Positions 15,373-62,115 of a stretch of 64,000 bases of DNA are shown piece after piece (position 1 is the stretch's first letter; every line of letters starts with the position of its first letter). This DNA is from Octopus vulgaris (Eukaryota), in the NCBI GenBank assembly GCA_951406725.2, contig OX597818.1, positions 27,466,001 to 27,530,000 of the forward strand. The letters run 5' to 3'. The position numbers and the translations under genes were made by a program. The notes under the pieces were generated by a model, which made no database searches, had not been told where the DNA came from, and was given only the letters and a program-made list of their open reading frames with translations.

Positions 15373-15644
15373 AAGATCACTGTAAAACAAGCTCAAATTG
15401 TTCCATGATTATGAATTTGGAATGAATATATTCCTTCACAGTGTCTTTCTATGATATACTACATGAGAAAAAATATTCAATGTCAGTCACAAGAATCTGA
15501 AGTGTTACAAGACACATTCATGTATTACTATAACCATGTTATTTATAAATTTATTTTTAAAATGTGTATGGAACTGAAATTTTGTATTAATTTTTATTGT
15601 ATATTTTAAATTGAAACTTTTCTGATTAAAATTTTTTTTTTAAG

Positions 15645-17857: not shown

Positions 17858-18163
17858 TGAAACCTATTTTCAGTTCAGTATTCAATGATCCTAAGAGAAA
17901 TGTTTCAAATGGAGAAACTGTAATTTTCAAACAGTGTTTTTATTCACATCCAAAATCTGATGTAAAATGGCAAAAAAACGAGGAATCAATTGACTCAGAC
18001 AAATATTCAACAACTGATTATTTATCAAGTGAGTTTCCTTTCAAAGGAAACTGTACTAGTTTAACAATAGAAGACATCAAAGATAACGATTTTGGTACAT
18101 ATATCTTAACTGTAGAAAACCCCATAGGGAAAGAAGTGACTGTTTTTACCTTGAGACCTGAAG
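17858..18163 (+). CDS. IgSF receptor, membrane-proximal I-set-like Ig exon 4 (phase 1-1)
   Basis: Acceptor (t)n-caccag|, donor |gtaagt. Reads (V)KPIFSSVFNDPKRNVSNGETVIFKQCFYSHPKSDVKWQKN...NCTSLTIEDIKDNDFGTYILTVENPIGKEVTVFTLRPE. Confidence 0.92.
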
Positions 18164-24492: not shown

Positions 24493-24597
24493 AAATTACA
24501 GAAGTCTTTTTGGGAACAATTATTGGTTGTACTGTAGGAAGTGTATTATTATTAATAACTTTGGGGCTTGTTGCTTATAAATTCCACAAAATAAGAG
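24493..24597 (+). CDS. IgSF receptor, transmembrane exon (phase 1-1)
   Basis: Acceptor tcttttcag|, donor AG|gttggt. Reads (E)ITEVFLGTIIGCTVGSVLLLITLGLVAYKFHKIR: about 24 hydrophobic residues followed by a basic stop-transfer stretch. In frame with exon 4. Confidence 0.88.
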
Positions 24598-32965: not shown

Positions 32966-32980
32966 ATGTGGAAAATAGCC
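32966..32980 (+). pseudogene. Decayed type A microexon (acceptor kept, body and donor deleted)
   Basis: tttcttgaag|atgtggaaaata runs straight into ccaatattgatagtacacacca, the intron sequence that follows type A exons elsewhere (e.g. about 42432). Confidence 0.65.
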
Positions 32981-33216
32981 AATATTGATAGTACACACCA
33001 TAATTTTAGAACAGTTTGAAACTTGAAAGAATGCAAGCAACCCTAAATAATATCAATCTCTAACATTTTTCTATTAATTGGTGTATGTGTATGAGTATGA
33101 ATGTGTTTGTGAGTCTAGTTCCTTAGTATTTACTTTGGTAGTATCAGTACACTAACATAGTTTGTTTTTATTTTATTTATAACATGTTATCTATTCTTTG
33201 TATTAATTTCTTAAAG

Positions 33217-33258
33217 ATATGGACATTGCTTGTATGAATGGTTCAGAGAAAACTGATG
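33217..33258 (+). CDS. Cytoplasmic microexon type B (42 nt), Tyr replaced by Cys: DMDIACMNGSEKTD
   Basis: tttcttaaag|...gatg|gtaagt. Colinear with 52396-52437 and 59928-59969. Confidence 0.78.
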
Positions 33259-33587
33259 GTAAGTATATGAGCATTTCTTTAATAAATTACATTCATTAAA
33301 GCACAAGTTTATTCTTTTACTGATTTCAGCCCAAGGCTGTAGCCATTCTGAGATTCTGACATTATACAGTACACTATTTTTGTTTCTAAATACACATTTA
33401 TACATAAAATATACATTATAATATATTTCAATATTATTTTTATACTACTTTTGTGCAACAACAAAATAGTTAAAACATATTCTCCAAGCAAATAATTCTG
33501 CTCAAATATTATTTAATTTCTTGAATCTGGGGAAGATCATTATGCTGTTGTTCAAAACATGTTGTATACATATATTTTTGTATAAAA

Positions 33588-40492: not shown

Positions 40493-40534
40493 TCCTGGAT
40501 GGTGCTTATGATAATCTTTCAAAGAAACCTGAAG
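40493..40534 (+). CDS. Cytoplasmic microexon type B (42 nt): VLDGAYDNLSKKPE
   Basis: ttcttaaag|tcctggat...gaag|gtgagc, phase 1-1, YxN motif. Confidence 0.85.
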
Positions 40535-42360: not shown

Positions 42361-42420
42361 CTGTGGATGATCATTATATTGAAGTTAGTGAACTCCAAGA
42401 TATGTGCCTAGAACTCCCTG
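42361..42420 (+). CDS. Cytoplasmic microexon type A (60 nt): AVDDHYIEVSELQDMCLELP
   Basis: ttttgaag|ctgtg...cctg|gtaagt, phase 1-1. Confidence 0.85.
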
Positions 42421-42657
42421 GTAAGTATAATCAATATTGATAGCACATGACATAATCCCAAAATAGTATAAACTTGAACAGAAAGCTAATGACTACATTT
42501 TATAACAATCTAAATATACCCTATCATTGTGTGTATGTCTGTGTACATGTGCTTGTGCATTCATTAATATTTATTTTAGTAGTATCAGCACACTAGCAAC
42601 ACATTTTAAATGTTATTTATTGTCACATTATTTATATTTAAAATGATTTTCTTGAAA

Positions 42658-42691
42658 ACAAAGATGGTGCTTATTTCTAAGAAATTTGATT
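42658..42691 (+). pseudogene. Decayed type B microexon (acceptor AG>AA, internal deletion)
   Basis: tttcttgaaa-acaaagatggtgcttat-ttctaagaaatttgatt-gttagc. DGAY matches 40493, and the flanking introns are homologous. Confidence 0.65.
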
Positions 42692-43215
42692 GTTAGCATA
42701 TAGGCAATTCAATAAAATTATAATCATTAAAGCAAGAGTTAAAAAATATCTTAGCTTATCCTTTCTTTGAGTAGAATATACTGCTTAATAACATACATAT
42801 GTTTTTAATTAGAAAAGTTTGAAAATGTGAAAACCCCATTGCATATATAAAGAACTTGACTTCTTACACATATTAATCCATATTAATAATCCAGTGTATA
42901 CACATATTTTCATAATTTGCCATATTAAATAAAATTAGACTTTATTTCTCCTTACTTTTTCATACCAAATGAATTTATTAGACAATTCTTTTCCTTTTCT
43001 GAATACATCAATGAGAGAAGGGGATGAAGACTCATACTGTACACTCAGTTTGGCTGGATTTCAAATAATTTTTTTTACCTAATATATGTTTATATATAAA
43101 ATATGTATTACAATATATTTTGACATTAGCTTTATGACTTACAGTGTAACAATAACATATTTAAAACACCCTTTCCAAACAATAAACAACCCATTTTTAA
43201 TCTAATTTCATGAAG

Positions 43216-43275
43216 GTGTGGAGCATCAATATTTTGAAGTTTGTGAGCACCAAAATATATGCCCAGAACCTCCTG
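43216..43275 (+). CDS. Cytoplasmic microexon type A (60 nt): GVEHQYFEVCEHQNICPEPP
   Basis: tttcatgaag|gtgtg...cctg|gtaagt, phase 1-1. Confidence 0.82.
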
Positions 43276-43915
43276 GTAAGTATAACAGACATTGATAGTG
43301 TATAGCATGACTTTAGATATAGTCTAAATCATGATTAGAAATCTAACAACCATAATTTGAATTAACTCCTCTCTTTTTACATTTGTATATATGTGAGTGT
43401 TTGAGTGTATGTTAATGGTATTCATTGTAATAGTATATGCTCACTACCAGCATATTTTAGATGTTATATCAATGTTTTGTGTTCATTTTTTAATCCCTTA
43501 AAGTTCTCAATATGCACTACTTTTATGTAATTTCTATAAAAAAATAATAGCATTTTGCAGATAGAAAAGAATTTTGAGTGTCTCATTTTATGGAAGAACC
43601 TTCTCTCCAAACACTAAATTTGATATACCATATCTATCAAAACTGATCTTTCTGTTTCTTCATAAGAAATGAATTTATGAGGCAATATTTTTCTGTTTTT
43701 CAATACATCATTGAGAAGATGAAGAGCTTATACATTACATTCGGTTTGGCTGCATTTCAAATATATTTTCTTTCTCTATACATGTTTATATACAAATGTT
43801 TATATACAAAATATAGATTATAATATGTTTTTGCTACTTTCTGTACAATATTGAAATACTTAAAATATCCTGTCCTAACAATAAATACACCCATTTTATT
43901 TTAAATTTCTTGAAG

Positions 43916-43975
43916 TTGTGGAAGATGAACATGCTGAAGATAGTGAGCCCAAATATGTATGCATGAAACAACCTG
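43916..43975 (+). CDS. Cytoplasmic microexon type A (60 nt): VVEDEHAEDSEPKYVCMKQP
   Basis: tttcttgaag|ttgtg...cctg|gtgagt, YxxM motif. Confidence 0.85.
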
Positions 43976-44011
43976 GTGAGTATGAATCAACATTGGAAAA
44001 ACACAGCATGC

Positions 44012-45040
44012 CTTCAGAATACAACGCAAGTCGCTCAAATTCCTTGTAATTTTTTTCATATAATTGCTTAAAGAGGCGATTTTGCAGTGCATACTTTTTT
44101 ATCAAGTTGACAGCTTTGATAACATTTATAAGTGCATCATTCAAATGTTTCCTATGTGTTTGGCAACCAGATGCTGTCAATGAACACAGTGCACAAAAAG
44201 CACAACTATTTTAAGTAAGCACTGAATCCCCAATATCTTCTGATCATGATTTAACTTGGTAGATTGACCTTTCCACCCTCGCCTCTTTCACTATAGATCT
44301 AGATGGAATAGTTATGATAATCAAAGTAACTTATAAATACTTAGGTAAAATGAAGTAAAAAGGAGTAGATACTTGCACACTAACGATGCAGAAAAATATA
44401 ATTAAACAAGAAAGTACAGAATCAAGAACAAAAGTAAGATGAGATAAGAAGAGAGAGAGAGAAAGAAGTGGTATAATTTGACAATCCAGAAAGAAAAATG
44501 AATCTTAAAGAGACTTGTGTAAATGTTAACCAGTTAGCATGGACGTTGTTGATTGGATGGATTTTCCATGTTGTCGATAATGTTGAAGTGGAGTTTTGAT
44601 TAATAACTGCGACTTTGCCTTCTGTGCTGTCCATTATATATATATATATGTCTTGCAGCTTTAAAATTTTGGAGCAATTTGGTATGATGCAATGATATGT
44701 AACTGTTCATCTTATGAACCAAACATACAACACTCAAAATCTAATATTCTAACATGTGCTCTTTAGGTACATATATGTGTGTAATATAAAATTAGTACAT
44801 AAGGATGATTCATCAAAATTATAACTGCATATACATGTGTTTCTTATATGTATATGTATAACATGCATTTTACAAATAAAAATACATACCTACACGTTAA
44901 TAATTTACGATCCCCAAAATTTCTGTGCCCCCACCCTCGCAGACCCCTGTGGCTCCCTATTTTTCAAACTTAGCTTTGTGGCCTACAAGAAATGTTTCAT
45001 GGCCCCTAGAGGGTCATATGGCTCCTGTTGAGAAACCCTG
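44012..45040 (-). mobile_element. hAT (Buster/Charlie-type) fragment, internally deleted copy of 47149-50088
   Basis: Reads LNDALINVIKAVNLIKKYALQNRLFKQL. Terminus gttgagaaaccctg is followed by ctcTAcag (nnnTAnnn). About 1.5 kb is deleted at tgatca relative to the second copy. Confidence 0.8.
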
Positions 45041-45488
45041 CTCTACAGCAAGACACCTGTATCTGTCTCGCTATAACCTTTTGATCATCACTCCCTCCAA
45101 AGCCTCTCTCCCTCTTAAAAGTTTTTGTCTTGCAAGTACTTGGTAACTCTGTCAGTGCAGGTGCCACTTAAAAGCACCCAGTCCACACTGTAAAGTGGTT
45201 GGTATTTGGAAGGGCATCCAGCTGTAAAAACCTTGCCAAAACTATCCTCAACTGTGCTTGTGCCACATAAAAGCACTACTCACTTTGCCTGTGCTTTTGC
45301 CACATAAAAAGCACTAAGTCCACTCCGCTGAGTGGACTTAGTGTTAGGAAGGGCATCCAGCTATAAAAATCCTGTCAAAACAATCACAGAAGTCTAGTGC
45401 AGGCGTCAGCCTGACTGGCTTTTGTGATACCATCCCACTAATGTTAGCTTGGAACATGAACGGTAAACGATGATGATGATGATGATGA
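45041..45488 (+). mobile_element. RTE-family 3' end with (GAT)n tail (duplicated at about 50089-50537)
   Basis: Contains ggaagggcatccagct blocks and ends taaacgatgatgatgat. Confidence 0.7.
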
Positions 45489-45591
45489 GTATATTTTGTC
45501 ATTTGCTTTATGACTTACAGTGTAACAATAACATATTTAAAACATCCTTTCCAAACAATAAACAACCTGTTTTTAATCTAATTTCATAAAG

Positions 45592-45651
45592 GTGTGGAGC
45601 ATCAATATTTTGATATTTGTGAGCACCAAAATATATGCCTAAAACTGCCTG
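45592..45651 (+). CDS. Cytoplasmic microexon type A (60 nt), weakened donor: GVEHQYFDICEHQNICLKLP
   Basis: tttcataaag|gtgtg...cctg|gtaaaa. Duplicate of 43216-43275. Confidence 0.6.
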
Positions 45652-45837
45652 GTAAAAATATAACAGACATTGATAGCACACAACATGACTTTAGAATAGT
45701 CTAAATCATGATTAGAAAGCTAACAACCATAATTTGAATTAGCACTCTTTTTATTTTTGTTCATATGTGAGTGTTTGAGTGTATCTTGGTATTCATTGTA
45801 GTAGTATCTGCTCATTACTTGCATATTTTAGCTGTTA

Positions 45838-46638
45838 GGAATTCCAACCACATTTTGTGGTTCACCATCTCAACAGCTCCTTTATAGGATCCAGTGGCTA
45901 AAGACATCAGGAGAAACCACATCCAGTTTCGGTCCCTACTCCTCAACCGTTTTTGATGTGGTGGGTCCCTCATCTCTTAAAGGTGTCTTCAGCTCTGGTG
46001 TCGAGTGCGTTTCTTCTTTCTCCTTTTTTCTTTTGTTCTTTGGTTTCTTCAATGCAGTATCAACAAATGTCAGTGGGCAACTGACCATCCTGCCAAATTT
46101 CCCATCAAATACTCACCGGTAGGCTCCAGCAGCCAGCACCAGCTAACTGCCGCATGACACTGTCTAAGCTTCAACTAACCAATGGAGGGGAAGGGCATGT
46201 AATTTTAGCCCATGCCCTCTTTAAATTTGCCTTCGAACAGTGTCGTGTTAGTTTCAGTTCCAGCAGCCAGATCTGACCAGCTGTTTGGTGGTACATGTCT
46301 TCAAACCAGAGGGAGGGCATGCAAAGAATGAGATCATTACCTTGGCCCAACTGTCAATCAGTGATGCTGCTTAAGTGTCAGCCAGCCTCACCTAACAATG
46401 CTATTCCCCAGTTGGCATGTTATGGTTTTCAAGCCATTTTAGGTCTTTTCACTTCAGCCATACATAGAAGCTGGCTTTTTCGACTGCCTCTTGTATCCTC
46501 CTTATTACTTTTCTCAGCTCTGAGCTCGAAAATTCAAACCTTCTGTTAAATAACGTCATCATTTTCCTTTCAATGAAACCTCTTGCCTCCACTGCCAGGT
46601 GGTAATACTCAACAGGCCATCCCTGTTCTCTGCACTCT
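45838..46638 (-). mobile_element. 5'-truncated restriction-endonuclease-type non-LTR retrotransposon (HERO-like)
   Basis: ECREQGWPVEYYHLAVEARGF...IRRIQEAVEKASFYVWLK resembles the RLE C-terminus (EVGxRGF, AEKASxWLW). Absent from the paralogous site at about 43465. Confidence 0.7.
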
Positions 46639-47052
46639 TGTTTTGTGTTCATTTTTCAATCTCTTGAATATTCCAGTATGCACTTCTTTCATGTAATTTC
46701 TATAACAAAATGCTAATTTTGTGGATAGAAAAAATTTTTAGTGTCTTACTTTATGGAGGAACTTTCTCTCCAAACACTAAATTTGATATGTCATATCTAT
46801 CGAAATTGATCTTTCTGTTTCTTCATAAGAAATGAATTTGTGTGGCAATATTTTTGTTTTCCAATACATCTATGAGAAGATGAAGAACTTATACATTACA
46901 TTCAGTTTGGTTGTATTTCAAACATATTTTCTTTCTCAATACATGTTTATATACAAAATATACATTTTATTTTTGCTACTTTCTGTGCAATATTGAAATA
47001 CTTAAAATATCCTAAAAATAAATAAACCCATTTTATATTAAATTTCTTGAAG

Positions 47053-47112
47053 TTGTGGAAGATGAACATGCTGAAGATAGTGAGCCCAAATATGTATGCA
47101 TGAAACAACCTG
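47053..47112 (+). CDS. Cytoplasmic microexon type A (60 nt): VVEDEHAEDSEPKYVCMKQP
   Basis: Identical to 43916-43975, with intact AG/GT. Confidence 0.82.
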
Positions 47113-47148
47113 GTGAGTATGAATCAACATTGGAAAAACACAGCATGC

Positions 47149-50088
47149 CTTCAGAATACAACGCAAGTCGTTCAAATTCCTCATAATTTTTTTCATATAA
47201 TTGCTTAAAGAGGCGATTTTGCAGTGCATACTTTTTTATCAAGTTGACAGCTTTGATAACATTTATAAGTGCATCATTCAAATGTTTCCTATGTGTTTGG
47301 CAACCAGATGCTGTCAATGAACACAGTGCACAAAAAGCACAGCTATTTTAAGTAAGCACTGAATCACCAATATCTTCTGATCATAGTAGCAATGCCATCT
47401 GTTGTACAAGCCACAATGTTCTTCAATGGAATGTTGTTCTCTTCGAAATAGGCCTCAAGTGTTTTGAAGATGGATTTCCTTTCAAAACAGATAAAAGCAA
47501 TTCTTGACATATATCATTAACATGAAGAAACCTAACAAATGCCATTTAAAAAACAGAATTATCAGGTAGAGTTGATTTATCTGTTTGAAGTGAGAACTCT
47601 TTTACCCTAAGTTTTGAAACTAATTAGCTTTCAACATCAGCTGTCATTTCATCAATCCATCATGATACTGATGAGTTGCTCAGAGGAATAACACTTGTAA
47701 CCTCTTGTGGACTATGATACATGACTGTTGAAAGCACTACAGCCACTGCAGGCATGATCAAAAATGGCTTACCACCTTTTGCAATTAAATTTGCTATCTT
47801 GTAAGAAGCCAACATTTCTTTGTCTACTTTTGCTGCTTTTTGAGTGAACATTTGATCCACTGTCATCCTTCCTTGAAACTCATCATATAACTTTTTGAAG
47901 AAATCTAGTGGCTTGTATTTCTTATCTCTATGTGCAGTCTCCAGATGTTCTTTTAGTTTGCAGGGACACATATTTTCATTTGAGAACAAGGTCTTGAATA
48001 GCAGACACATTAGGTATGGTAGAATTTTGTGAAGATTTAATGAATCCATAAGCAAGATATTCGACAGAATATTATCTACACTTTTTTTAGGTGCACTTGC
48101 CATGTTTATCTGAAATAATAAACAAATATTTTCAAAAATGTTGAATAAAAAAGAGGTTAGTTTCAAGCGTTTTCGTCAGGGGTGAATACAAAGTAAGGTA
48201 AACCAATATACCTTTTTAACCAAGAATAAAATTAGTTCTAAAACCAAGTTTATAAAGTCAATATATTATGCAGTTAACTAAATCAAACGCTTTAATAATC
48301 AAGAAAAACAGATTAATATTTATGCTTATAAAAAGATAAAAATAACAAGACAAAATTCATCTTTCCCTTTTCAGTTGACAATCCAGAAAGAAAATTAATT
48401 TGATGAAAAGAAACTAAATTATAAAAGTGATCGATAAAGCAAGTGAGCTGGTAAGCTCATGGAAAAAATAGGGCTGATTTATTGCTGAATCAAACTCGAA
48501 TTGCCTAAAAGAGTTATATTGAAAATGTATTTTCTTTTTAAAAAAAAAATGATTTTATAATATATTTTGTTATAGTCTATTAAACATAGTTCAATATTAA
48601 ATTTTACTCTAATTCAATTAAGTATATAATACTATTCAGTGACTAATTATTGAATCATTAAATTGATTAATAATCTAATAGTTGTATAAAAAGGCATATA
48701 AGAATGATTTTATCTAGTTTTCTAATGAATTGTTTGTTTGTTTGTTTTCGGGGTATCCTCAGCCTCTCACCTCCCTCTTGATTCCCCATCTTAGTTTGGA
48801 TACTTCTCAAATTATAGGTTTTTTGAAAATAAATCCTATACTCATATGTGAAGAAACAGTTTTCCTGACTGCTTGGGTTCAGTTTGAATGCTTGATCAAT
48901 GATTTAACTTGGTAGATTGACGTTTCCACCCTCGCCTCTTTCACTATAGATCTAGATGGCATATTTATGATAATCAAAGTAACTTATAAATACTTAGGTA
49001 AAATGAAGTAAAAAGGAGTAGATACTTGCACACTAACGATGCAGAAAAATATAATTAAACAAGAATGTACAGAATCAAGAACAAAAGTAAGATGAGATAA
49101 GAAGAGAGAGAGAAAGAAGTGGTATAATTTGACAAAACAAAAAAGAAAAATGAATCTTAAAGAGACTTGTGTAAATGTTAACCAGTTAGCATGGACGTTG
49201 TTGATTGGATGGATTTTCCATGTTGTCGATAATGTTGAAGTGTGGAGGGGCAATGGCCCAGTGGTTAGGGTAGCGGACTCACGGTCATAGGATCGCGGTT
49301 TCGATTCCAGACCGGGCGTTGTGAGTGTTTATTGAGCGAAAACACCTAAAGCTCCACGAGGCTCCGGCAGGGATGGTGGTGATCCCTGCTGTACTCTTTC
49401 ACCACAACTTTCTCTCACTTTTACTTCCTGTTTCTGTTGTACCTGTATTTCAAAGGGCCGGCCTTGTCACTCTCTGTGTCACGCTGAATATCCCCGAGAA
49501 CTACGTTAAGGGTACACGTGTCTGTGGAGTGCTCAGCCACTTACACGTTAATTTCACGAGCAGGCTGTTCCGTTGATTCGGATCAACTGGAACCCTCATC
49601 GTCGTAACCGACGGAGTGCTTCATCCAAAATGTTGAAGTGGAGTTTTGATTAATAACTGCGACTTTGCCTTCTGTGCTGTCCGTTATATATGTATGTTTT
49701 GCAGCTTTAAAATTTTGGAGCAATTTGGTATGATGCAATGATATGTAACTGTTCATCTTATGAACCAAACATACAACACTTAAAATCTAATATTCTAACA
49801 TGTGTTCTTTAGGTACATATATGTGTGTAATATAAAATTAGTACATAAGGATGATCCATCAAAATTATAACTGCATATACACGTGTTTCTTATATGTATA
49901 TGTGTAACATGCATTTTACAAATAAAAATACATACCTACATGTTAATAATTTACGATCCCCAAAATTTCTGTGCCCCCACCCCCCGTAGACCCCTGTGGC
50001 TCCCTATTTTTCAAACTTAGCTTTGTGGCCTACAAGAAATGTTTCATGGCCCCCTAGAGGGTCATATGGCTCCTGTTGAGAAACCCTA
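47149..50088 (-). mobile_element. hAT (Buster/Charlie, ZBED5/SCAND3-like) transposon, 3' half missing
   Basis: ORF 47660-48166 reads MCLL..SNENM.P.KLKEHLETAH, ASYKIA.LIAKGGKPF and IPLSNSSV, then FSLQTDKST and ACTTDGIATMI. Terminus gttgagaaacccta at 50075-50088. Confidence 0.85.
49243..49628 (+). mobile_element. Young full-length tRNA-derived SINE with 12-bp TSD
   Basis: A box tggcccagtggttagg, B box ggtttcgattcc. TSD aatgttgaagtg at 49231-49242 and 49629-49640. The empty site is visible at about 44579-44590. Confidence 0.9.
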
Positions 50089-50639
50089 TTCTACAGCAAG
50101 ACACCTGTATCTGTCTCGCTATAACTTTTTGATCATCACCTCCTCCAAAGCCTCTCTCCCTCTTAAAAGTTTTTGTCTTGCAAGTACTTGGTAACTCTGT
50201 CAGTGCAGGTGCCACTTAAAAGCACCCAGTCCACACTGTAAAGTGGTTGGTATTTGGAAGGGCATCCAGCTGTAAAAACCTTGTCAAAACTATCCTCAAC
50301 TGTGCTTGTGCCACATAAAAGAACTACTCACTTTGCCTGTGCTTTTGCCACATAAAAAGCACTAAGTCCACTCCGCTGAGTGAACTTAGTGTTAGGAAGG
50401 GCATCCAGCTATAAAAATCCTGTCAAAACAATCACAGAAGTCTAGTGCAGGCGTCAGCCTGACTGGCTTTTGTGATACCATCCCACTAATGTTAGCTTGG
50501 AACATGAACGGTAAACGATGATGATGATGATGATGAGTATATTTTGTCATTTGCTTTATGACTTACAGTGTAACAATAACATATTTAAAACATCCTTTCC
50601 AAACAATAAACAACCTGTTTTTAATCTAATTTCATGAAG

Positions 50640-50699
50640 GTGTGGAGCATCAATATTTTGAAGTTTGTGAGCACCAAAATATATGCCCAAAACTGCCTG
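50640..50699 (+). pseudogene. Type A microexon copy with lost donor (GT>GA): GVEHQYFEVCEHQNICPKLP
   Basis: tttcatgaag|gtgtg...cctg|gaaaat. Confidence 0.75.
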
Positions 50700-50883
50700 G
50701 AAAATATAACAGACATTGATAGCACACTACATGACTTTAGAATAGTCTAAATCATGATTAGAAAGCCAACAACCATAATTTGAATTAGCACTCTTTTTAT
50801 TTTTGTTCATATGTGAGTGTTTGAGTGTATCTTGGTATTCATTGTAGTAGTATCTGCTCATTACTTGCATATTTTAGCTGTTA

Positions 50884-51685
50884 GGAATTCCAACCACATT
50901 TTGTGGTTCACCATCTCAACAGCTTCTTTATAGGATCCAGTGGCTAAAGACATCAGGAGAAACCACGTCCAGTTTCGGTCCCTACTCCTCAACCATTTTC
51001 GATGTGGTGGGCCCCTCATCTCTTAAAGGTGTCTTCAGCTCTGGTGTCGAGTGCGTTTCTTCTTTCTCCTTTTTTCTTTTGTTCTTTGGTTTCTTCAATG
51101 CAGTGTCAATGAATGTCAGTGGGCAACTGACTATCCTGCCAAATTTCCCATCAAATACTCACCGGTAGGCTCCAGCGGCCAGCACCAGCTAACTGCCGCA
51201 TGACACTGTCTAAGCTTCCACTAACCAATGGAGGGGAAGGGCATGTAATTTTAGCCTATGCCCTCTTTAAATCTACCTTCGAACAGTGTTGTGTTAGTTT
51301 CAGTTCCAGCAGTCAGGTCTGACCAGCTGTTTGGTGGTACATGTCTTCAAACCAGAGGGAGGGCATGCAAAGAATGAGATCATTACCTTGGCCCAACTGT
51401 CAATCAGTGATGCTGCTTAAGTGTCAGCCAGCCTCACCTAGCAATGCTATTCCCCAGTTGGTATGTTATGGTTTTCAAGCCATTTTAGGTCTTCTCACTT
51501 CAGCCATATATAGAAGCTGGCTTTTTCGACTGCCTCTTGTATCCTCCTTATTACTTTTCTCAGCTCTGAGCTCGAAAATGCAAACCTTCTGTTAAATGAC
51601 GTCATCATTTTCCTTTCAATGAAACCTCTTGCCTCCACTGTCAGGTGGTAATACTCAGTAGTCCATCCCTGTTCTCTGCACTCTT
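50884..51685 (-). mobile_element. Duplicate of the HERO-like fragment at 45838-46638
   Basis: ORF 51495-51698 is nearly identical, at the same insertion point. Confidence 0.7.
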
Positions 51686-52099
51686 GATTTGTGTTCATTT
51701 TTCAATCTCTTGAATATTCCAGTATGTACTTCTTTCATGTAATTTCTATAACAAAATGCTAATTTTGTGGATAGAAAAAATTTTTAGTGTCTTACTTTAT
51801 GGAGGAACTTTCTCTCCAAACACTAAATTTGATATGTCTTATCTATCAAAATTGATCTTTCTGTTTCTTCATAAGAAATGAATTTGTGTGGCAATATTTT
51901 TGTTTTTCAATACATCTATGAGAAGATGAAGAACTTATACATTACATTCAGTTTGGTTGTATTTCAAACATATTTTCTTTCTCAAATTCATGTTTATATA
52001 CAAAATATACATTTTATTTTTGCTACTTTCTGTGCAATATTGAAATACTTAAAATATCCTAAAAATAAATAAGCCCATTTTATATTAAATTTCTTGAAG

Positions 52100-52159
52100 T
52101 TGTGGAAGATGAACATGCTGAAGATAGTGAGCCCAAATATGTATGCATGAAACAACCTG
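52100..52159 (+). CDS. Cytoplasmic microexon type A (60 nt): VVEDEHAEDSEPKYVCMKQP
   Basis: Third identical copy; tttcttgaag| ... |gtgagt. Confidence 0.85.
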
Positions 52160-52395
52160 GTGAGTATGAATCAATATTGGAAGTACACAGCATGTCTTCA
52201 GAATAGTGCAAAACTTAAATAGAATGCTAACACTAACTTTTTTCTGTTGATGTGTGTGTGTGTATGTGTGTGTGTGCACATGCATTGTTTCAGTGTATGC
52301 CTTTAATATTTATTCTGATAGTATTAGAGCACTACTAACATATCATAAATATTATTTACAGCTATGTTATTTATTTTCCTTTATATTTCTTAAAG

Positions 52396-52437
52396 ATTTG
52401 GACGCTATTTATGCTAACATTCCAAAGAAACCTGATG
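52396..52437 (+). CDS. Cytoplasmic microexon type B (42 nt): DLDAIYANIPKKPD
   Basis: tttcttaaag|atttg...gatg|gtaagt, YxN motif. Confidence 0.88.
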
Positions 52438-52572
52438 GTAAGTATTTAAATGTATTGCAGGACAAGTTAGTAACAATTTTGGCTCATTATTTCTTTAAGT
52501 AGAATATAAAGTTTAATATATTGGTAGGATTGCAATTTAAACTTTGAAAATGATAGCAGTCCATTGAACATA

Positions 52573-53844
52573 CGAGGGGCGTTCAATAAGTAATGCCCCT
52601 GACCCACTTCCCATAGCAGTAGAGCAACGAAACTTGGCACAGCTATTAGTCTTTTTCTACATAGGAACCACCCAGAGTTACGCATTTCTCCCATTGCTTG
52701 ATGCAGCTCTGGAGACCGTTTTTGTAGAAGACCCCAGCTTGGTCCTCCAACCTGAACGTGACTTCAGAAATCAAGGCTGCATCATCTGGGAAACGCTTTC
52801 CTTTCAAAAACAACTTCATGACTGGGAAGAGGTGAAAATCGGAGGGTGCAAGGTCAGGAAAGTAGGGGATGGGGGAGGAGTTCATAGCCATACGCCTGTG
52901 CTTCTGATCTGGCGACAAGCGAGTTGTGGACCGGAGCGTTGTCCTGCAGGAGGAGGATGCCTTTGCTGATCTTGCCCTGCCTCTTGATTTTGATAGCTTC
53001 TCTTAATTTCCTCAAAAGTGAAGCATAATAGGCTCCTGTAATTGTGGTACCCTTTGCCAGGAAATCTGTCATCACTACTCCGTCCTGGTCCCAGAAGACT
53101 GTGAGCATGACCTTGCCAGCGGAGGGCTGCACCCTTGCCTTCTTTGGAGGGGTGAGTCACGGTGCTTCCACTGCATTGACTGGGCTTTGGTCTCTGGATC
53201 ATCGTGATGGACCCAGGTTTCATCCTGTGTAATCAGTCTTTTGAAAAATTTTGACTCATCTTCTTGGCACATCTCCAAATTCACCCTCGAGCACTCGACG
53301 CGTTCTTGCTTCTGGAAAGGCGTGAGCAACCTGGGAATCCATCTGGCAGACACCTTTTGCATATGCAAATGGTCATGAATGATAGTTTCCACAGACCCGG
53401 TACTAAACTTGACCTCATGGGCTATTTGGCGAATAATTATGCGTCAATCTTCCAAAATGGCAGCCTCAACTTGACGGACAGATGCCTCATCAATGGCAGA
53501 AGGGGCGACCAGATCTGGGAGCTGTTTCCACAGAGTTCCGACCATGTTTGAATTCACGATGCCAGCGTTTTACAAGGTCATATGATGGGGCATCATCACC
53601 ATAAGTTACTTTCATTTCATCAAAAGTCTCCCGTGGTGTGCATCCTTTCAAATACAAAAACCGGATCACTGCTCGACACTCAACAGGCTCCATTTCACAC
53701 TTGACTCGGTTCAAACACCTGTAAATCAGAAACCATATAAATGATTGCACAGATATATAGATATAAATGATTGCACATGCAAAATTTCAGCTAGATCAAA
53801 CAATTGCAAGTGGGTCAGAGGCATTACTTATTGAACGTCCCTCG
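52573..53844 (-). mobile_element. Full-length mariner transposon with frameshifted transposase (53693 to 52646)
   Basis: TA|cgaggggcgttcaataagtaatgcccctgaccca ... tgggtcagaggcattacttattgaacgtccctcg|TA. Reads WIPRLL, ITQDETWVH, LQDNAPVH and YFPDLAPSDFHLF in several frames. Confidence 0.93.
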
Positions 53845-54286
53845 TATGATAAACGTCATGCAGACATTCACTTGTACCTCCAATATTTTACCATTTTATT
53901 AATCCAGTTGATAAAACTATTTTCTGTAAATGTCAGTTGTACAACAAATAAACCAAATAATGATATAAGTAGTACTGCATTCACCAGATATCTGCATAGA
54001 GATTAGACAAAATAGTTTGGAAGAGATTTGCAATGGGGAAAGTTCTACACCTTTATCATTTATTTTTGTTGAATAGCCACATTCAATCCTGCTTATGGAC
54101 ACCTCTGACATGAAATTAATCTTGGAAAGTATCTTATTTCTGTAGAGATATTTGTGAGCAGTTTCTCTTAATGGTAACTTTTAAATATCAGTAAAATATT
54201 TGATGACTGATATAGTAGAATGCTGTATAAAACACTTAGTAGTATTAAATTTAATCTCACTAGACTCTGAGGTCAAATCCCTTTAA

Positions 54287-54905
54287 TCCTTAAATGGTGT
54301 AGACATCACCAATTGATATTTCATTAGAGAACAGCAAACATCATCAACTGATGTTTTATTAGAGAACAGTGGGCATCATCAACTGAGTTTTAAAAATTTT
54401 ACACGAATACAGCCATCTTCAAGTGACACCTGAGCATCTACTTCATCAAATGCATCTTAGTGTAAGTGGCCCTTACTGATGAGAGAAATCAAGTCATAAA
54501 TGGAATATCTATACAGTGATAAAGAAGATTTTTCTGGGTTGTTTTCATCATTAGATGAGTTAGATTACGATGATGATGATGATGATGATGATACTCTAGG
54601 AATCACAGATGAAAGTGATGCTTCAGCTAGCTCTGGATATGAAAAATACACTGAATTTCCTCATGTGTACAACAATATACAGCAACAATGTTGAAATCTC
54701 AAATGATTTTGGCTAAAATGATTTTATTACATTTTAGTCTTTATTTTAATAATTTAAGAGAATGAAAATATTGTTTCCTTAGTTTTGGGAGTAATTTAAA
54801 GTGAAAATAAGTATAAAAATTATCCTTAAGAAAAAAATGTTTTTTGTTTTTTTATCTTGTTGACACATGCATTCAAGCAACCTTTTTCTAGCCACTGTTT
54901 AAAAC
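54287..54905 (+). mobile_element. TTAA-flanked insertion, possibly a piggyBac derivative
   Basis: TTAA on both sides and weak inverted ends (tccttaaatggtg / cactgtttaaaac). Contains a short acidic ORF at 54500-54694. The uninterrupted paralogous site is at about 60285-60325. Confidence 0.45.
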
Positions 54906-55882
54906 TTAAAGTAAATTTTGTTCTGTGAGCAATCCTCCCACACATAAATACTACTTTTACATAATTCCTCTACTAATATTAGCATTTTTTGCTTCTATAG
55001 TAATAAAAGCAAAATTCTGTCTCTCTCTCTCTCTCTCTCTGGGAATCCTGTATCTCAGTCTAAATTTGTTCTACATAGACATATACCTTTTTGGAGTCAG
55101 TATGATCACAGGATGGAAAATCTGCCCTTCATTTGGTTCTTGAACATACATTATTGGGATCTGATTTAAAAGCATTGGGTTGCCTTTTCTAGCAGTTAAA
55201 GTTTAGCTGATTCATGCCATCTTGGTTGGCATTTGTCAGATGACATCAGAGGGGAAGATAACTGACATTCGCTTCATGAATTTTACTTTGAGATGAGAAC
55301 TCTGGGACAAATTGGTTAACAGTTGGAATTCAACTTAGGACTGGCACAATAGAATGATTGCATTACAGAATTAATTCCCATCTGTCTTTAACCTCTGATC
55401 AAACACTGCTGTGACATATAGTCATTATAAGTATGATAATCATGCTACATAGCTCTGTTTAGTTTTGAGCCACAGACCCAATTAGCCCTCCACACGAGCT
55501 AGCTTAAAAGTCTGCACAGTGTGCTGCCTTTAAGCTAGTATGGAATATAATTTAAGAACCTCTTTACTAAAGAACTTTCTTTCCAAGCACTAACTTTGAA
55601 ATGCTATATTTACCAAAATTAGGCTTTCTTTCCTCTTTACTTTTCCATAGCAAATGAATTTATTAGGTATTACTACACTCTTTTAAAATACATCAAAGCA
55701 AGGATGAAAAACCTATACTTTACACTCAGTTTGGCTGTATTTCAAATATTTTTTGTTTTCAAGTACATGTTTATCTGTATGATATAATATACATTACAAA
55801 ATATTTTATTATTATGGCTTTTGCTATTTTCTGTGCAACATCAAAATAATTAAATCTTCTTCTACAAACAATAAATATTCCA

Positions 55883-56201
55883 TTATTTACATTATTTACA
55901 TTTGACAGATATTTGTCCTCATCTTGTTTATTGTTATCACAACATTTTTGGCTGATATACCCTCCAGCCTTCATCAGGTGTCTTGGGCAAATTTCGAACA
56001 TGGGTTCTCATTCCTAAGGTATTTTTCGATGTTGTTGTTGTTATTATTATTATTATTCAGGTCACTGCCTGGAATTGAACTCAAAATCTTGGGGTTAGTA
56101 GCCCATGCTCTTAACCACTACACCATATGCCCACAGGCATATGGCATGTTAACAACAAACAAGATGAGGACATAATTCCTCATCTCTTAAATATAAAACT
56201 G
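55883..56201 (-). mobile_element. Penelope-type pLTR fragment with a decayed minimal hammerhead ribozyme
   Basis: Flanked by the direct repeat aataaatattcc. Minus strand reads gacac-CTGATGA-aggctgg..tcagcc-aaaaa-tgtt-gtg. An inverted partial copy lies at about 56147-56172. Confidence 0.6.
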
Positions 56202-56239
56202 AATAAATATTCCCATTTTTTATATTTAATTTCTTGAAG

Positions 56240-56296
56240 TTGTGGAAGATCATATTTTGAAATTACTGAGCCCAAATATTTATGCATGAAACACAT
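56240..56296 (+). pseudogene. Decayed type A microexon (1-nt deletion, donor lost), retaining traces of YFEI and YLCM
   Basis: tttcttgaag|ttgtggaagatca-tattttgaaattactgagcccaaatatttatgcatgaaacac-attaagt. Confidence 0.75.
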
Positions 56297-56389
56297 TAAG
56301 TTGAATCAGTAATGATAATATGCAGCATGATCTTAAAGATTGTCTAAAATATGAACAGAAAGCTAAGAATTATAATATATATCACTTCT

Positions 56390-56614
56390 TTTATTGTTTT
56401 TTATTTGTTTCAGTCATTGGATTGTGGCCATGCAGTGGCAACATAGTATGGTTTGAGTCAGATGAATTAATCTTAGTACTTCCTTTCATTTTTAAGTCTA
56501 GAATTTATTAAATCTGTTTCTTTTGCTGAACTGTTATGCTACAGGGATGTAAACAAACCAATACCAGTTGTCAAGCAGTGGGGGAGACAAATACAAACAC
56601 AAAGACACACTCGC

Positions 56615-56649
<35 letters not shown>

Positions 56650-56860
56650 TACATAATACACACGCACACACACACAATATATATATATATATATATATAT
56701 GACAGTTTCCCACTGAGTTTCTGTTAACAAAATTCACTCCCAAGGTTTTGGTCAGTCCAGGGCTATGGTAGAAGATACTTGCTCAAGATGTTGCACAGTG
56801 GACTGAACCCAAAACTATACAGTTTTAAAATGAGTTTCTTGACCACACACCCTTGCCTTT
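56390..56860 (-). mobile_element. SINE-like repeat with internal (TA)/(CA) microsatellite
   Basis: Homologous to 3840-4192. Confidence 0.65.
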
Positions 56861-56934
56861 GTGTGTGTGTGTGTGCACACGTGTATCTGTGTTTAAGTGT
56901 ATTTCATTAATATTTGTTATGGTTGTACCAATAC

Positions 56935-59137
56935 ATCATCATCATCATCATTGTTTAACATCTATTTTCCATGCTTGCATTAGTTGGATAGCTTAACAGG
57001 TCTCACTGAGCACAAAAACCCCCCAATCAGTTTGGTCTTTTGTCATCTCCTCTGTAAGGTTCAGTATTTGAAGTCAGCCTTCACTACTTTGTCTCATACC
57101 TCTTAGGGTTTCCCTTTTTCTGTAATTCCAACCACTTTAAGTGATCAGCATTTCTTTACATAGTTGTCCTCATCCATATGCATTCAATGATCAAACTAGC
57201 ACAGTCTTCTATGTTGCACACTTCATCTGATTTCTTTTATGACTAATTTTTCTCTTAGTACATTAGCACCTTGTTACACATGCACAATAACATTGCACAT
57301 GCAGTGGAATATACTAGCTTTCTTCCTCTCTATTTCTTGGTATGTCTCCTGCATTCAGAGCCCATACCTCATTATCATGTAACATTACTTTATGAACAGA
57401 GGCATTATACAATTGTTGCTAACAAAGGTAATATCTCTTAAGGAGTTAAGCTGGCAGAATTTTTAGAATGCCATCTTAATGTTCTGAGTTCAAATTCTGC
57501 CAAAGTCAACTTTGCTTTCCATCCTTTTGGGTCAATAAAATAAGAGCCAGTTTAACACTGGGGCTGATGTAATCAACTTATCCTCTCCCCTGAAATTGCT
57601 GGCCTTTTGCCAAAATTTGAAACCAAAGGTAATATCTTTCTGAATTTTCTCCATCCTAGCAACTGCACTTTCTGAAAATCCTTCTCCATTGCTAAATAGG
57701 TCACCTAAGTATCAGAAATTATCCACTACTTCTAGGGAGCCTCCAAGGTATTTGAAAGAATCAATTTCTTTTGTATGTTTAGTCTCCATGACACTTGTGC
57801 ATCTTCCACATGCAAAGACTACTTCCTCCATTAACTTTCCACTGATTCCTATGCACATCTTGTGTATCCATAGCTAGTGCTACCTAAACAGTTCCTACAT
57901 AACAAGCAGGGCCATTTGCATGAAGTAAGGCCCTGTCTGTTTTCTTGCTTACTAAAGCCTTGGGCTTTATTAAACTAATTTTAAGCCCCTTCAATTCCAG
58001 GTTTTGCTTCAACATCTGGAATTTCTTTTTTCAATTCTGATATGAGCATGAGATCATCAGTGCATAGTAATTCACAAGGGCAGTTGGTCTTAAATTAATG
58101 TGTTATGGCCAGGAGCACAATGATGAATTTGGAGGGTACTGAGAACCAAGTCCTAGTGGACACCTACCTGTACTCTAAATTCATCACTGTACTTACTTAT
58201 GGGAAACTCTCATCTTACTGACAGCACGCCCATAAATGACTTGTACAGCTTTCAGAAAATTTTGTCTATCCCTAGCTTTCTCAGAGACCACATTGCAGAA
58301 AGAGGGACTCTGTTGAAGGGACTCAATGAATGCCAAGTGCAATGGCTTATCTTACCTAAATCTTTCTCCTGTAGTTGTCTCTCTAGGAAGATGGCATCAG
58401 TAGCACAAAACAACAGTGCATCTTGTCAAGTCTCTGTTTCTAATTATTTGAGCAATAACTCTCTTTGTAAATTTCATGACCTATAACTTTATCCTTGCAA
58501 TGGCTGCTATACCAGGTATTGGGGATGATATCTTCCTGTGTAACATGATTATCCAGGTAACTAGACCATAACCTACTTTGTTGGATATTTTCTTGTTTCC
58601 ATATCTTTAATTGCTTTATCTATCATACTACTGTCAACTCTGACAGCTGGCCCCACTGTTTGGTTAATGTTGGAGAGACTCTCTTTCTCCCATGCATTCT
58701 CCACATTTGATAACCTTTCTTAGTAGCACTTCAATGCCACTTTCTTTTCAGGATCACTAAGTGCAAGCATAATGCTAGCCATCCATACATACTCCTCTCT
58801 CACAATATCTTGATTCTCTCTTATACACTGTCTTGCAATGAGAAATACCTCTCACTTCTGATCCTCACATTGTAAGACATTGGCAGACCTCTTCCTTTCT
58901 GCTTCTACTCTTGCTGAATAAACCTGGTGCCTAGCTTTCTGTCTAGCTACCAGACACAGTTCTTTGCTGCCCCCATTTTCTCACTCTTTTCAAGCCTATC
59001 TCTTTGCTTTTATGGCTTTATTTGCCTCACTTTTCTGTCACAATGTCACCCTTGATTTTGCTGAAACTTTGCTCCTGCTACAGATTTGGCCTGTTGCCCT
59101 CAGTAGGTTGTCCTGTAAGAACTTCCAGTTGTCCTCT

Positions 59138-59211
<74 letters not shown>

Positions 59212-59885
59212 TCCTCCTCCTTCTCATCAAATGCTTCAGTTAGAATCTCTAACTGTTTGAAGGATCCCCTTAAGTTTCTATATCTTCCTTTTCCAGATTG
59301 GTTTGTATCTCTGAGTCCATCTAACCCTAAGTCTGAAGTCATTAACCTATAGCCCTATGTTGAGGTGTATATTTCTCACGAGGAAAGGACAAGCATTTCC
59401 CTATCTCGCTTTCTAATAAAAATATAGTCAATCTAGCTTCTGTGCCAAATAGATTAATAATTGATTAGGTAGCTGGCAGGTTTTCTGAGGGCAGTGCTGC
59501 AGAGCAACAAGCCATTTGCACCTCAAAACTCAAACAGCTTTTTATCCTCCTCATTTCTGGAGCCCTAACCACCATGCATGCCATGAAATCCATTGGAGTG
59601 CTGCCCAACATATCTGCTGAAACCATAATAATAAAGTTATTGCTATTCATCATCGAGGTAGTCTGCAAAAGAACCTCATAGTATTGGTCCTTTTGATCCT
59701 CTGCCAGTTCAGTGGGGCATATGCAGTGGTAAGTAACACTGTAACATTAGCAAAGATTACTCTTAGGCTAACAATACTATTTCACACCTTAACTACCATG
59801 ATTACCTTAGCTACTCATTTCTCTGCCAAAAATATACCTACATCCCCAACCCATTATTACTACATATATGTTCTGTGCCTGTTAT
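56935..59885 (-). mobile_element. Long decayed RTE LINE (endonuclease through RT), with a nested SINE at about 57445-57622
   Basis: (CAT)n tail at 56935-56952. Remnants include LDYIF at about 59415-59435 and AIKDMET. The nested Nin-type SINE is flanked by the direct repeat caaaggtaatatct. Confidence 0.75.
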
Positions 59886-59927
59886 GCATATAGCCATGAT
59901 ATGTGTTTTGTTTTTAATTTCTTAAAG

Positions 59928-59969
59928 ACATGGACAATGCTTATGTTAATGTTTCAAAGAAACTTAATG
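59928..59969 (+). CDS. Cytoplasmic microexon type B (42 nt): DMDNAYVNVSKKLN
   Basis: tttcttaaag|acatg...aatg|gtaagt, YxN motif. Confidence 0.87.
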
Positions 59970-60367
59970 GTAAGTATATAAGCAACCTCTTAATAAAATT
60001 ACATTAAAGCAAGAGTTAACAAATATTTTAGCTCATTCTAAGTAGAATATGCAGTTTAATATGTGTACAAACATAATTAAAAGTTAAAAAATGTGAAAAT
60101 TTCATTGTATATATAATAAAATTTCTGAAAATATTCCTATGTAACTGATATTTTACACTTTTATTTATCTTTACTAATAATCCAGTCCATAAACATGTCT
60201 TGTGTAACATCTAGTTGTCCAAATAAACCAATGCCATATGGAATTAATTATTTGGCAGTAATTAATTTAGTCCCACTACCTTCTGAGTTCAAATTTCATT
60301 GAAGTAAATTTTGTTTTGTGAGACTCTATAAGTAATACTTTTTATATAAGATGTCAGTGCTGCTTTT

Positions 60368-60640
60368 ACTGGCTTCCGTGCCAGTGGCACGTAAAAAGCA
60401 CCAACCAATCGTGGCTGTTGCCAGCCTCCTCTGGCCCCTGTGCCGGTGGCGTGTAAAAAGCACCCACTACACTCATGGAATGGTTGGGGTTAGGAAAAGC
60501 ATCCAGCTGTAGAAACACTGCCAGATCAGACTGGAACCTGGTGCAGCCTCCTGGCTTCTCAGACCCCAGTCAAACTGTCCAACCCATGCCAGTATGGAAA
60601 GCGGACGTTAAATGATGATAATGATGATGATGATGATGAT
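60368..60640 (+). mobile_element. RTE-family 3' end with (GAT)n tail
   Basis: Homologous to 23085-23415. Confidence 0.8.
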
Positions 60641-60961
60641 AACTTCTCTAACAAAATTAATATTTTGTTTATGGAATAAAATTTCAAATGCCACTTTACT
60701 GAGAAATCTTCTCTGCAAACTCTAATTTTAAAATACCATAATACTAACCTTCTTTCCACTTTTTCATATGCAATGAATTTATTCAGCACGACTTTTCATT
60801 TTCTCAAGACATCAATGTGAGGATGAAGAACGTATACTGTACATTAAAGTTTGGCTGTATTTTAAATAAGTTTTCTAAATACTTGTTTCTATATATATAT
60901 ATATATCATCATCATTTAATATCAACCTTCCATGCTGGCATGAGTGGGGTATATATATATA

Positions 60962-61526
60962 TTGGGTTGTCCAGAAAGTTTGTGCCAATGTTTAAAGGAA
61001 AGAAAAAGGTCAATAAATACTTGCCATTACATTTTTAATCAACCAAATATGAACCATTTTGTTGCACAATGCATCTCCATCTTCCTTTAACTTGAAAATA
61101 CCCTCTTCCCAGAATTGAGGTGGTTTCATGGCAAAGAATTCATCAAGGTATCTTTTTATGTCATCCAAGGAATTGAAATTTTTACCATTAAGACTATTCT
61201 GCAGAGACCTGAATAAGTGAAAATCCGAAAGAGTAATATCTGGTGAATATGGAGGGTGGGGTAACACATCCCAGCCGAGCTGCAGCAATTTTTGTCTGGT
61301 TTCCAAAGCATCAAGTGTTGAAACTGAACTTTCTTACCTTCCATTTTAAAGGGTTACAGAATTAACACAGGTTATAGGAACATAAACCTTCTTCCACGAA
61401 AAGATAGCTCAAACTGTGCTCTAAATGGAGGTGTAGTCAAATCCTATTTTATGAACTCAACCATGTTCTAAAATAAGTCAAAAGGTAAGCTACTATAAAT
61501 CGGCATGAACTTTCTGGACAACCCAA
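60962..61526 (-). mobile_element. Internally deleted mariner element
   Basis: TA|ttgggttgtccagaaagt...actttctggacaacccaa|TA. Reads TRQKLLQLGWDVLPHPPYSPDITLSDFHLFRSLQNSL. Confidence 0.9.
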
Positions 61527-61528
61527 TA

Positions 61529-61569
<41 letters not shown>

Positions 61570-62055
61570 TATAAGCAAGGGCTAAAGAAGGTTATTCTAA
61601 AGCCAATATACTGATATTCCACATTTAATCTACTTGCTACAGAAAGTTGAATTGAAATTCGGGCAACTAAACCTTTGGAACATTTAAATTTCGTTATCTC
61701 AATATTGAATCAATTTCGGAATTAACCACATAAGGGTTCGTTCGTCTTCAGTTGAGCTTACAAGAGAATATAAGTAAGATACTCACATGCGCCTCTGGAA
61801 ATAGCCGAAGCGAATAACACAAGTACATCTAAGTAACCCAATTATATCCAAAAATAAAAGTTCTTAGGTTAGTCTCAGGACAACATGTTGACTTCCCGCC
61901 ACTACATATTGTAGTGGTAACAAGTCCCCCTGCAGCACATATACATATATACCTATAAAATGTATTATATTTGCTACTTTCTGTGCAATAAAGAAATAGT
62001 TAAAGCATTCTCCCCAAACAATAAATATGCTTGTTTTATATTTAATTTCTTGAAG

Positions 62056-62115
62056 CTGTGGAAGATTATTATGTTGAAGTCAGTGAGTTGAAATATGCGT
62101 GTATGAAACACCCTG
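62056..62115 (+). CDS. Cytoplasmic microexon type A (60 nt) with both tyrosine sites: AVEDYYVEVSELKYACMKHP
   Basis: tttcttgaag|ctgtg...cctg|gtaagt. Confidence 0.88.

Follow-up and report, generated by a model that had tools for sequence, protein, structure and literature searches.

The subject of this study is a set of small cassette exons in a 64,000-nucleotide stretch of the Octopus vulgaris genome (assembly GCA_951406725.2, contig OX597818.1, positions 27,466,001 to 27,530,000 of the forward strand), which we call the window and number from its first letter. Judged from the protein models mapped to it, these exons encode cytoplasmic tail segments of an Octopus receptor that is still uncharacterised and has multiple immunoglobulin (Ig) domains and a single membrane pass. 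Our preferred reading, to which we give a probability of roughly 0.6, is that they are serially spliced, frame-preserving cassettes whose tyrosines are likely phospho-docking sites, and that their present pattern reflects two (at most three) old point mutations, tandem duplication, and moderate selection for at least one tyrosine per cassette.

Cassette anatomy and serial splicing

All 64 kb of the window was examined, and the type A exons were checked letter by letter; all exons listed here lie on the plus strand. Type A copies, when intact, measure 60 nt, are bordered by AG...GT, and begin and end in phase 1; the type B copies measure 42 nt and share that phase. Because of these lengths and the shared phase, any subset of cassettes preserves the reading frame. 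The type A coordinates and codons given in the first-pass annotation of this DNA all proved exact. Site 1 is the only tyrosine site kept at 42361..42420 (YIEV...DMCL, VDDHYIEVSELQDMCLELP), 43216..43275 (YFEV...NICP, VEHQYFEVCEHQNICPEPP), and 45592..45651 (YFDI...NICL, VEHQYFDICEHQNICLKLP, with the weak donor GTAAAA), where the site 2 codon reads GAT, AAT, and AAT and the Met at +3 is replaced by Leu, Pro, and Leu, respectively. Site 2 is the only one kept at 43916..43975, 47053..47112, and 52100..52159, which share one sequence (HAED...YVCM, VEDEHAEDSEPKYVCMKQP) with CAT at site 1 and Asp at its +3 position. Both tyrosines are present at 62056..62115 (YVEV...YACM, VEDYYVEVSELKYACMKHP). The dead copy at 56240..56297 also has both tyrosine codons, as the annotation said, but a 1-nt deletion makes its YFEI...YLCM readable only in a shifted frame, and it has lost the donor. 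Every exon that had been named is present; the list had missed a further site-1-only copy without its donor (50640..50699) and two decayed type A remnants, 32966..33000, from which the bulk of the exon is deleted, and 33527..33555, which has no acceptor and a replaced 3' part (both ends approximate).

Read evidence was taken from region 43140–44040 only, with runs X1 and X4 carrying an RNA label that is a tool's guess. The RNA-type contigs of X1 were restricted to exons within that region. In one of them, 43216 is joined to a site-2 exon over a GT..AG intron and is itself preceded by the end of 42361; in another RNA-type contig a site-2 exon runs into the type B exon at 52396. Joins of one site-2 exon to another were found in one contig each of X1 and X4 (2/2 RNA-type runs), the copy behind each such join being not assignable because the site-2 exons are identical. 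Site-1-only and site-2-only cassettes are spliced serially in one chain.

Gene models give the same picture at a larger scale. The three models from O. vulgaris and O. sinensis have a single common tail, which skips 45592, 50640, and 56240 and includes the two-tyrosine exon 62056 in every case. For O. bimaculoides the analysis covered gene models only; of 16 records, 15 were listed, and no two of these have the same tail, the number of YxxM motifs ranging from one to four. All 15 combine a YIEV cassette with at least one HAED-YVCM cassette, and none has the two-tyrosine exon, so both single-tyrosine classes persist in a second species. Dscam-type arrays are likewise tandem duplicated exons in an alternatively spliced gene of the immunoglobulin superfamily, spliced in a mutually exclusive manner and mostly extracellular, whereas the octopus cassettes are intracellular and serially spliced. 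Mutually exclusive splicing was rejected because neighbouring type A exons are spliced to one another both in RNA-type contigs and in each of the 18 models that were divided into cassettes.

Origin and retention of the single-tyrosine classes

The history of the copies was reconstructed from the flanking introns of 55 type A copies. These were profile-masked, and the resulting tree replaced a first one contaminated by transposon-derived flanks; two of the 57 type A copies (32966 and 33527), whose exon is largely missing, were left out. The eight window copies other than 56240 formed a clade (support 95/92), within which 62056 was sister to the site-2-only trio (96/88); 56240 lay outside the eight, among dead terminal copies of other genes. 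Because 62056 stands beside the trio and 56240 stands outside, both tyrosines are ancestral. The first-pass annotation had proposed such a two-tyrosine ancestor and a tree from flanking introns as its check; tree and tip states bear it out.

For the site-1-only copies, the introns did not resolve a single clade, yet such a clade was not rejected (approximately unbiased test, p 0.33), and these copies have derived exon letters around site 2 in common. The O. bimaculoides counterpart of 42361 has Asn at site 2, like 43216, so that one loss followed by an Asn-to-Asp change is the simplest history for this class. The three site-2-only exons are identical (0/60 bases different), with flanks that diverge by up to 12%; between 43916 and 52100 the contrast is 0/60 exon bases vs. 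32/274 flank bases (p 0.0006), which gene conversion could explain. The flanks of 47053 are mosaic, resembling 52100 upstream and 43916 downstream, and together with the dead copies they reflect cassette turnover. A tandem duplication of about 5 kb and about 98% identity (about 44250–47360 and 48900–52200) places 45592/47053 in one unit and 50640/52100 in the other, and different insertions lie between the units. Six independent tyrosine losses were rejected, given the identical site-2 trio and site-1 copies that fit one origin. Because the copies are not independent, the window pattern amounts to two, at most three, mutations. We conclude that the single-tyrosine classes likely descend from two or three old mutations, and the O. 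bimaculoides models support the view that both classes are old and were kept in that species.

Retention of tyrosines was examined across the gene cluster, which holds at least 55 comparable type A copies and at least 61 type B copies, both counts being lower bounds. Tests on live copies masked 13 dead ones, a strict set masked 10 more, and the tree tool dropped two of the 61 type B rows. Among the live type A copies (n = 42), 16 have both tyrosines, 22 have site 2 only, four have site 1 only, and none has neither. No dead copy (0/13) and no type A exon of the O. bimaculoides models (0/17; 16 by pattern, one by reading) lacks both. The earlier statement that no intact type A copy has lost both tyrosines is thus true of the window and of all 42 live copies in the family; taken alone, the window's absence of a tyrosine-less copy is not beyond chance (twice the log-likelihood difference, 2ΔlnL, 2.1 vs. 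the neutral rate). On the tree, Tyr1 was replaced in seven changes (by CAT, GAT, AAT, TGT, TGC, and AGT) and Tyr2 in three (by AAT/GAT and TGT). A model in which the last tyrosine is protected fitted better than independent loss, with a likelihood ratio of 4.7 (bootstrap 8/300, p 0.027). In the strict set this ratio falls to 2.8, and simulated independent loss yields zero tyrosine-less copies 17–33% of the time. The type B cassettes served as a control: their tyrosine is absent in 4/51 live cassettes and changes at a rate of 0.85 (0.3–2.0) vs. 1.92 for neutral change. For type A, a neutral rate of losing the last tyrosine was disfavoured (2ΔlnL 5.4), but the type B rate was not (2.4). The lack of tyrosine-less live copies is weak to modest evidence for protection, and the likelihood, simulation, and type B results together point to a moderate brake on loss of the last tyrosine and not to an absolute rule.

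Rates were estimated relative to introns. Codon positions 1 and 2 of the exons evolve at 0.9 times (0.8–1.0) the intron rate and position 3 at 1.2 times; the values are 1.4 (0.7–2.5) for Tyr1 and 0.6 (0.15–1.4) for Tyr2. Since the tree was fitted on introns, gene conversion would inflate the exon rates. The first-pass annotation had named two observations that would tell against its reading of the array as a subfunctionalised two-motif exon. One, exon divergence equal to intron divergence, is what we found; the other, frequent expressed copies without tyrosine, was not seen (0/55 here, 0/17 in the O. bimaculoides models). Strictly intact copies number 33/55 vs. 10.4 expected neutrally (p 0.002), which places the splice sites and the frame under selection. 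Orthologous cassettes differ between species at only one or two of 19 residues, vs. 80–93% identity of the Ig domains, and by this comparison the cassettes look constrained over short timescales.

Coupled loss of a tyrosine and its +3 residue, also suggested earlier, does not hold as a general rule, because the site-1 +3 residue is still Val or Ile in 16 of the 29 copies without Tyr1. Decay of the lost half was judged by pairwise comparison of natural copies, a crude test. Against 56240, the window copies appear diverged in the lost half (5 vs. 1, 3 vs. 7, and 3 vs. 6), and the two-tyrosine exon 62056 gives a matching 4 vs. 7; family-wide there was no asymmetry (9 vs. 15 and 10 vs. 14, with a baseline of 17 vs. 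25; Fisher p 0.72).

Several points weigh against the preferred reading. The RNA label is only a tool's guess, no run being recorded as RNA, and the isoform records are annotations and not reads. The rate intervals are wide, both for Tyr2 and for the type B tyrosine relative to the neutral rate, so that constraint on the tyrosines is not demonstrated site by site, and at site 2 the +3 Met changes at 1.4 times the intron rate and is thus not a slow position.

The proposal of a subfunctionalised two-motif exon stood in part: the ancestral pair and the old, kept classes agree with it, and the rates, the lost half, the +3 residues, and the surviving two-tyrosine exon do not. In a strict form, the docking functions would have been split between duplicates, with each class required and the two-motif copy redundant, a history that we consider unlikely. 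The ancestral exon with two tyrosines, the presence of both classes without a two-tyrosine exon in 15/15 O. bimaculoides isoforms, and the protection of the last tyrosine (p 0.027) are what it would predict; a paralogue at C5:27.99–28.00 Mb independently has one exon with both tyrosines, one with site 1 only, and one with site 2 only, and the amino-acid changes in an orthologue pair fall mostly in the tyrosine-less half (by eye). Set against this are the small number of window events (two or three), the two-tyrosine exon retained in the O. vulgaris and O. sinensis models, the lack of faster change in the lost half (p 0.72), the near equality of exon and intron divergence (0.9 times), and the ease with which independent loss leaves no tyrosine-less copy (0.17–0.33; strict-set ratio 2.8). 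Loss is also lopsided (22 vs. 4), 4/51 live type B cassettes do without their tyrosine, and several paralogous arrays have site-2-only but no site-1-only exons. The duplication-degeneration-complementation model expects an ancestor with both elements, complementary losses that are kept, and no copy left with both functions. The ancestor and the complementary losses were found, the latter as only two or three events; a two-function copy is also left, since 62056 is intact, and it is absent from 15/15 O. bimaculoides models. The model further expects the two elements to have distinct, needed functions, and constraint to be relaxed on the lost element and maintained on the kept one; on constraint, the observations were no asymmetry family-wide (p 0.72) and a modest protection of the last tyrosine (p 0.027; 0.17–0.33 by simulation). 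Since a single polypeptide contains all the cassettes, nothing requires them to complement one another. A division of labour between copies is possible, and subfunctionalisation, as the narrower claim, is testable and unproven.

Selection might instead act on the splice sites and frame alone, with the rest of a disordered tail drifting almost neutrally, tyrosines being lost at random, and recent duplication mimicking a pattern. The exon rate of 0.9 and the Tyr1 rate of 1.4 times the intron rate fit such drift, as do the 4/51 tyrosine-less type B cassettes; neutral simulation leaves no tyrosine-less live copy in 9.7% of cases, and the number of Tyr2 changes is not significantly low (p 0.24). 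We nevertheless regard it as improbable in view of the unchanged exon between the diverged flanks of 43916 and 52100 (0/60 vs. 32/274; conversion possible), the one or two differences in 19 residues of orthologous cassettes vs. 80–93% Ig identity, and the disfavoured neutral loss of the last tyrosine. Kinases prefer acidic residues upstream of tyrosine, and the site-2-only exon could have been selected as a stronger YxxM cassette in which the Val-to-Asp change extended the upstream acidic run, and then amplified while the site-1-only exons took another role. The site-1 +3 Asp of the HAED exons recurs in another gene, in DAED/DSED exons that stand apart in the intron tree, and three copies of the site-2 exon are the same throughout, even in the half without a tyrosine. 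Exon-level conversion between genes could account for the common Asp, however, and two O. bimaculoides copies drift in the tyrosine-less half (HVGD, DVGD). We regard this retuning as very improbable.

The receptor, its motifs, and its paralogues

The gene, as laid out by mapping protein models, comprises a first coding exon, eight Ig-like exons, an exon for the membrane segment, and a tail of 222 residues, 12 of them tyrosines. The first coding exon and four Ig-like exons sit upstream of the window. Inside it are Ig-like exon 5 of the ectodomain (4231..4485, with Pfam Ig matches on protein models), exon 6 (10459..10707), exon 7 (15645..15899, with a GC donor), and the membrane-proximal I-set exon 8 (17858..18163). 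The transmembrane exon (24493..24597, ITEVFLGTIIGCTVGSVLLLITLGLVAYKFHKIR) is hydrophobic and ends in KFHKIR, and was judged by eye to give a single membrane pass followed by the tail. Pfam I-set and Ig_3 exceeded the cut-off in all three proteins scanned, as expected of an Ig ectodomain. The O. vulgaris model P0020 is without most of Ig exons 6 and 7; exon 7 is included in the O. sinensis and O. bimaculoides models.

Matches to this gene are LOC115212119 in O. sinensis, LOC106869178 in O. bimaculoides, and CAI9722591 in O. vulgaris. With the last Ig exon as query, 18 proteins were matched, 17 of them named or labelled as Octopus or the same family; a profile search recovered 17 proteins from Octopus and, weakly, a single Ig protein from a copepod. 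With the tail as query, the O. sinensis model was the sole match among shorter proteins, and an atlas search gave no match at 0.9. Six locus ids were absent from three supplementary files of PMC9712504. Between species the Ig domains are 80–93% identical, the membrane-distal domain being the most divergent (80%); in recognition receptors that domain is often the most divergent.

The O. vulgaris tail contains four YxxM, four YxN, and six Yxx[ILV] motifs. A consensus scan of this tail, with definitions from excerpts of 10.1101/2022.03.04.482883 and PMC11507803, found no canonical immunoreceptor tyrosine-based activation, inhibition, or switch motif (ITAM, ITIM, ITSM) and no hemITAM. The ITAM pattern Yxx[IL]x6-9Yxx[IL] had no match in the P0020 and P0028 tails. 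A reading of the two-tyrosine exon as an ITAM was rejected, since only four residues separate the type A sites and the last residue of site 2 is Met. The ITIM pattern [ILVS]xYxx[ILV] had no match in the O. vulgaris model and one (VAYVNL) in the O. bimaculoides orthologue. Directly past the end of the window, a type B exon (L011:808-849, VDVAYVNLPRRPN) has lost its donor in O. vulgaris; O. bimaculoides uses an exon matching it, which is the source of that tail's sole canonical ITIM.

In insulin receptor substrate (IRS) proteins, YxxM recruits phosphoinositide 3-kinase (PI3K) and YxN recruits GRB2, according to the part of PMC9481563 consulted. By analogy, the partner of site 2 (YxxM) would be PI3K and that of type B (YxN) Grb2, while site 1 (YxEV/I) may recruit another SH2 protein, and the phosphorylated tail would form a multi-site docking platform; 36 SH2 matches were found in the genome. 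The ancestral repeat unit was probably an A-B pair about 300 nt apart, multiplied by unequal crossing-over. Over evolutionary time, cassettes that duplicate or die would set the motif numbers, and in the individual animal skipping would likely do so; the main trend appears to be that YxxM multiplies, whereas site 1 can largely be dispensed with family-wide.

The type B cassettes of the window are at 40493..40534 (YDNL), 52396..52437 (YANI), 59928..59969 (YVNV), and 33217..33258 (MDIACMNGSEKTD), the last of which is without its sole tyrosine and is included in gene models of all three species; a dead copy at 42658..42695 has an 8-nt deletion and has lost its acceptor. By eye, the intron after 33217 holds a decayed long terminal repeat (LTR)-retrotransposon-like element between two similar ends of about 270 nt (about 36100–40070); a similar decayed element lies near 12700–15400, and a broken PIF1/Helitron-like helicase-coding stretch lies at about 250–1320.

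Across the genome, the last Ig exon had 11 close matches and two weaker pieces, and tail arrays were located on C5 (27.5–28.8 Mb), C28, and C31. The paralogue at C5:27.99–28.00 Mb is a second, independent reciprocal case, with two-tyrosine, site-1-only (site 2 TGT), and site-2-only (site 1 AGT) exons at 27992658, 27997304, and 28004353; in its O. bimaculoides counterpart, one exon lacks Tyr1 and another has both tyrosines. Near-identical tail arrays occur at C28 7.99–8.01 Mb, at C31 2.84–2.87, 6.65–6.66, and 9.11–9.13 Mb, and at C5 28.58 and 28.76 Mb, and could represent recent segmental duplication or assembly redundancy. Several of these copies lack AG or GT, and some use an in-frame AG 6–9 nt downstream in gene models. 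Three further regions examined had no type A exon, and one of these carries a related array of the YAKV type. A related Ig gene at C5:29358071-29380316 has a different array, made of YAKV-type micro-exons (for example, VEDLYAKVNKPRMQTD), some without tyrosine.

Comparable systems and significance

The octopus receptor had an ESM feature match of 0.95 to an automatically named CD22 cluster, a value that reflects language-model features only. Siglecs such as CD22 have an N-terminal V-set domain with a sialic-acid-binding arginine. Like CD22/Siglec and Xenopus FcR-like proteins, as far as these are described in the relevant part of PMC2413239, the octopus receptor has several Ig domains, one membrane pass, a lineage-specific cluster expansion, and multiple Yxx[LIV] tail motifs on separate exons. 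Unlike CD22/Siglec tails, the octopus tail is built of repeats that carry YxxM and YxN, and it has no canonical ITIM in the O. vulgaris model. Among solved structures, the single octopus protein had no significant match, and a profile gave only weak generic Ig matches. We offer only as a tentative suggestion that this is a CD22-like receptor cluster peculiar to octopuses, with recombining, skippable phosphotyrosine micro-exons, in which exons with two sites would have given way time and again to cassettes with one, in two genes at least and completely in O. bimaculoides, so that splicing would set PI3K, Grb2, and phosphatase sites independently.

Three invertebrate systems are comparable, as described in the available portions of their sources. 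Botryllus FcoR (PMC11507803) is likewise an expanded receptor family with several tail tyrosine motifs, many of them only a YxxI/L/V core with upstream acidic residues, whose content varies by allele and alternative splicing; its ectodomains, however, are fester-related (Sushi-type) and not multi-Ig, it has canonical ITIM and hemITAM, and a tandem array of homologous micro-exons is not described in that portion. Hydractinia Alr genes (10.1101/2022.03.04.482883) are also clustered, single-pass members of the immunoglobulin superfamily with tyrosine-motif tails, some of them alternative. Alr tails have canonical ITAMs and ITIMs, whereas the O. vulgaris tail has none, and the octopus gene has eight Ig-like exons. 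Oyster CgIgIT2 (PMC11999971) is a molluscan multi-Ig, single-pass protein with a tyrosine-motif tail; it has one ITAM vs. the 12-tyrosine cassette tail of the octopus, and the searches made gave no sequence relationship.

Tails with multiple tyrosine motifs and spliced variants are thus already known from tunicates, cnidarians, and vertebrates. What appears to be new is a tail composed almost wholly of duplicated one- or two-tyrosine micro-exons, in a receptor cluster whose close relatives were found only in Octopus species. No description of this receptor family or its locus ids was found in the literature searched, most subscription journals being outside its coverage, and the modular signalling tail is real and apparently undescribed. 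For immune or cell-recognition signalling in cephalopods it provides a candidate family with a name and, with some 55 copies of type A and 61 of type B and at least seven and three tyrosine losses, respectively, at sites 1 and 2, a compact system in which the gain, loss, and counting of docking motifs may be studied.

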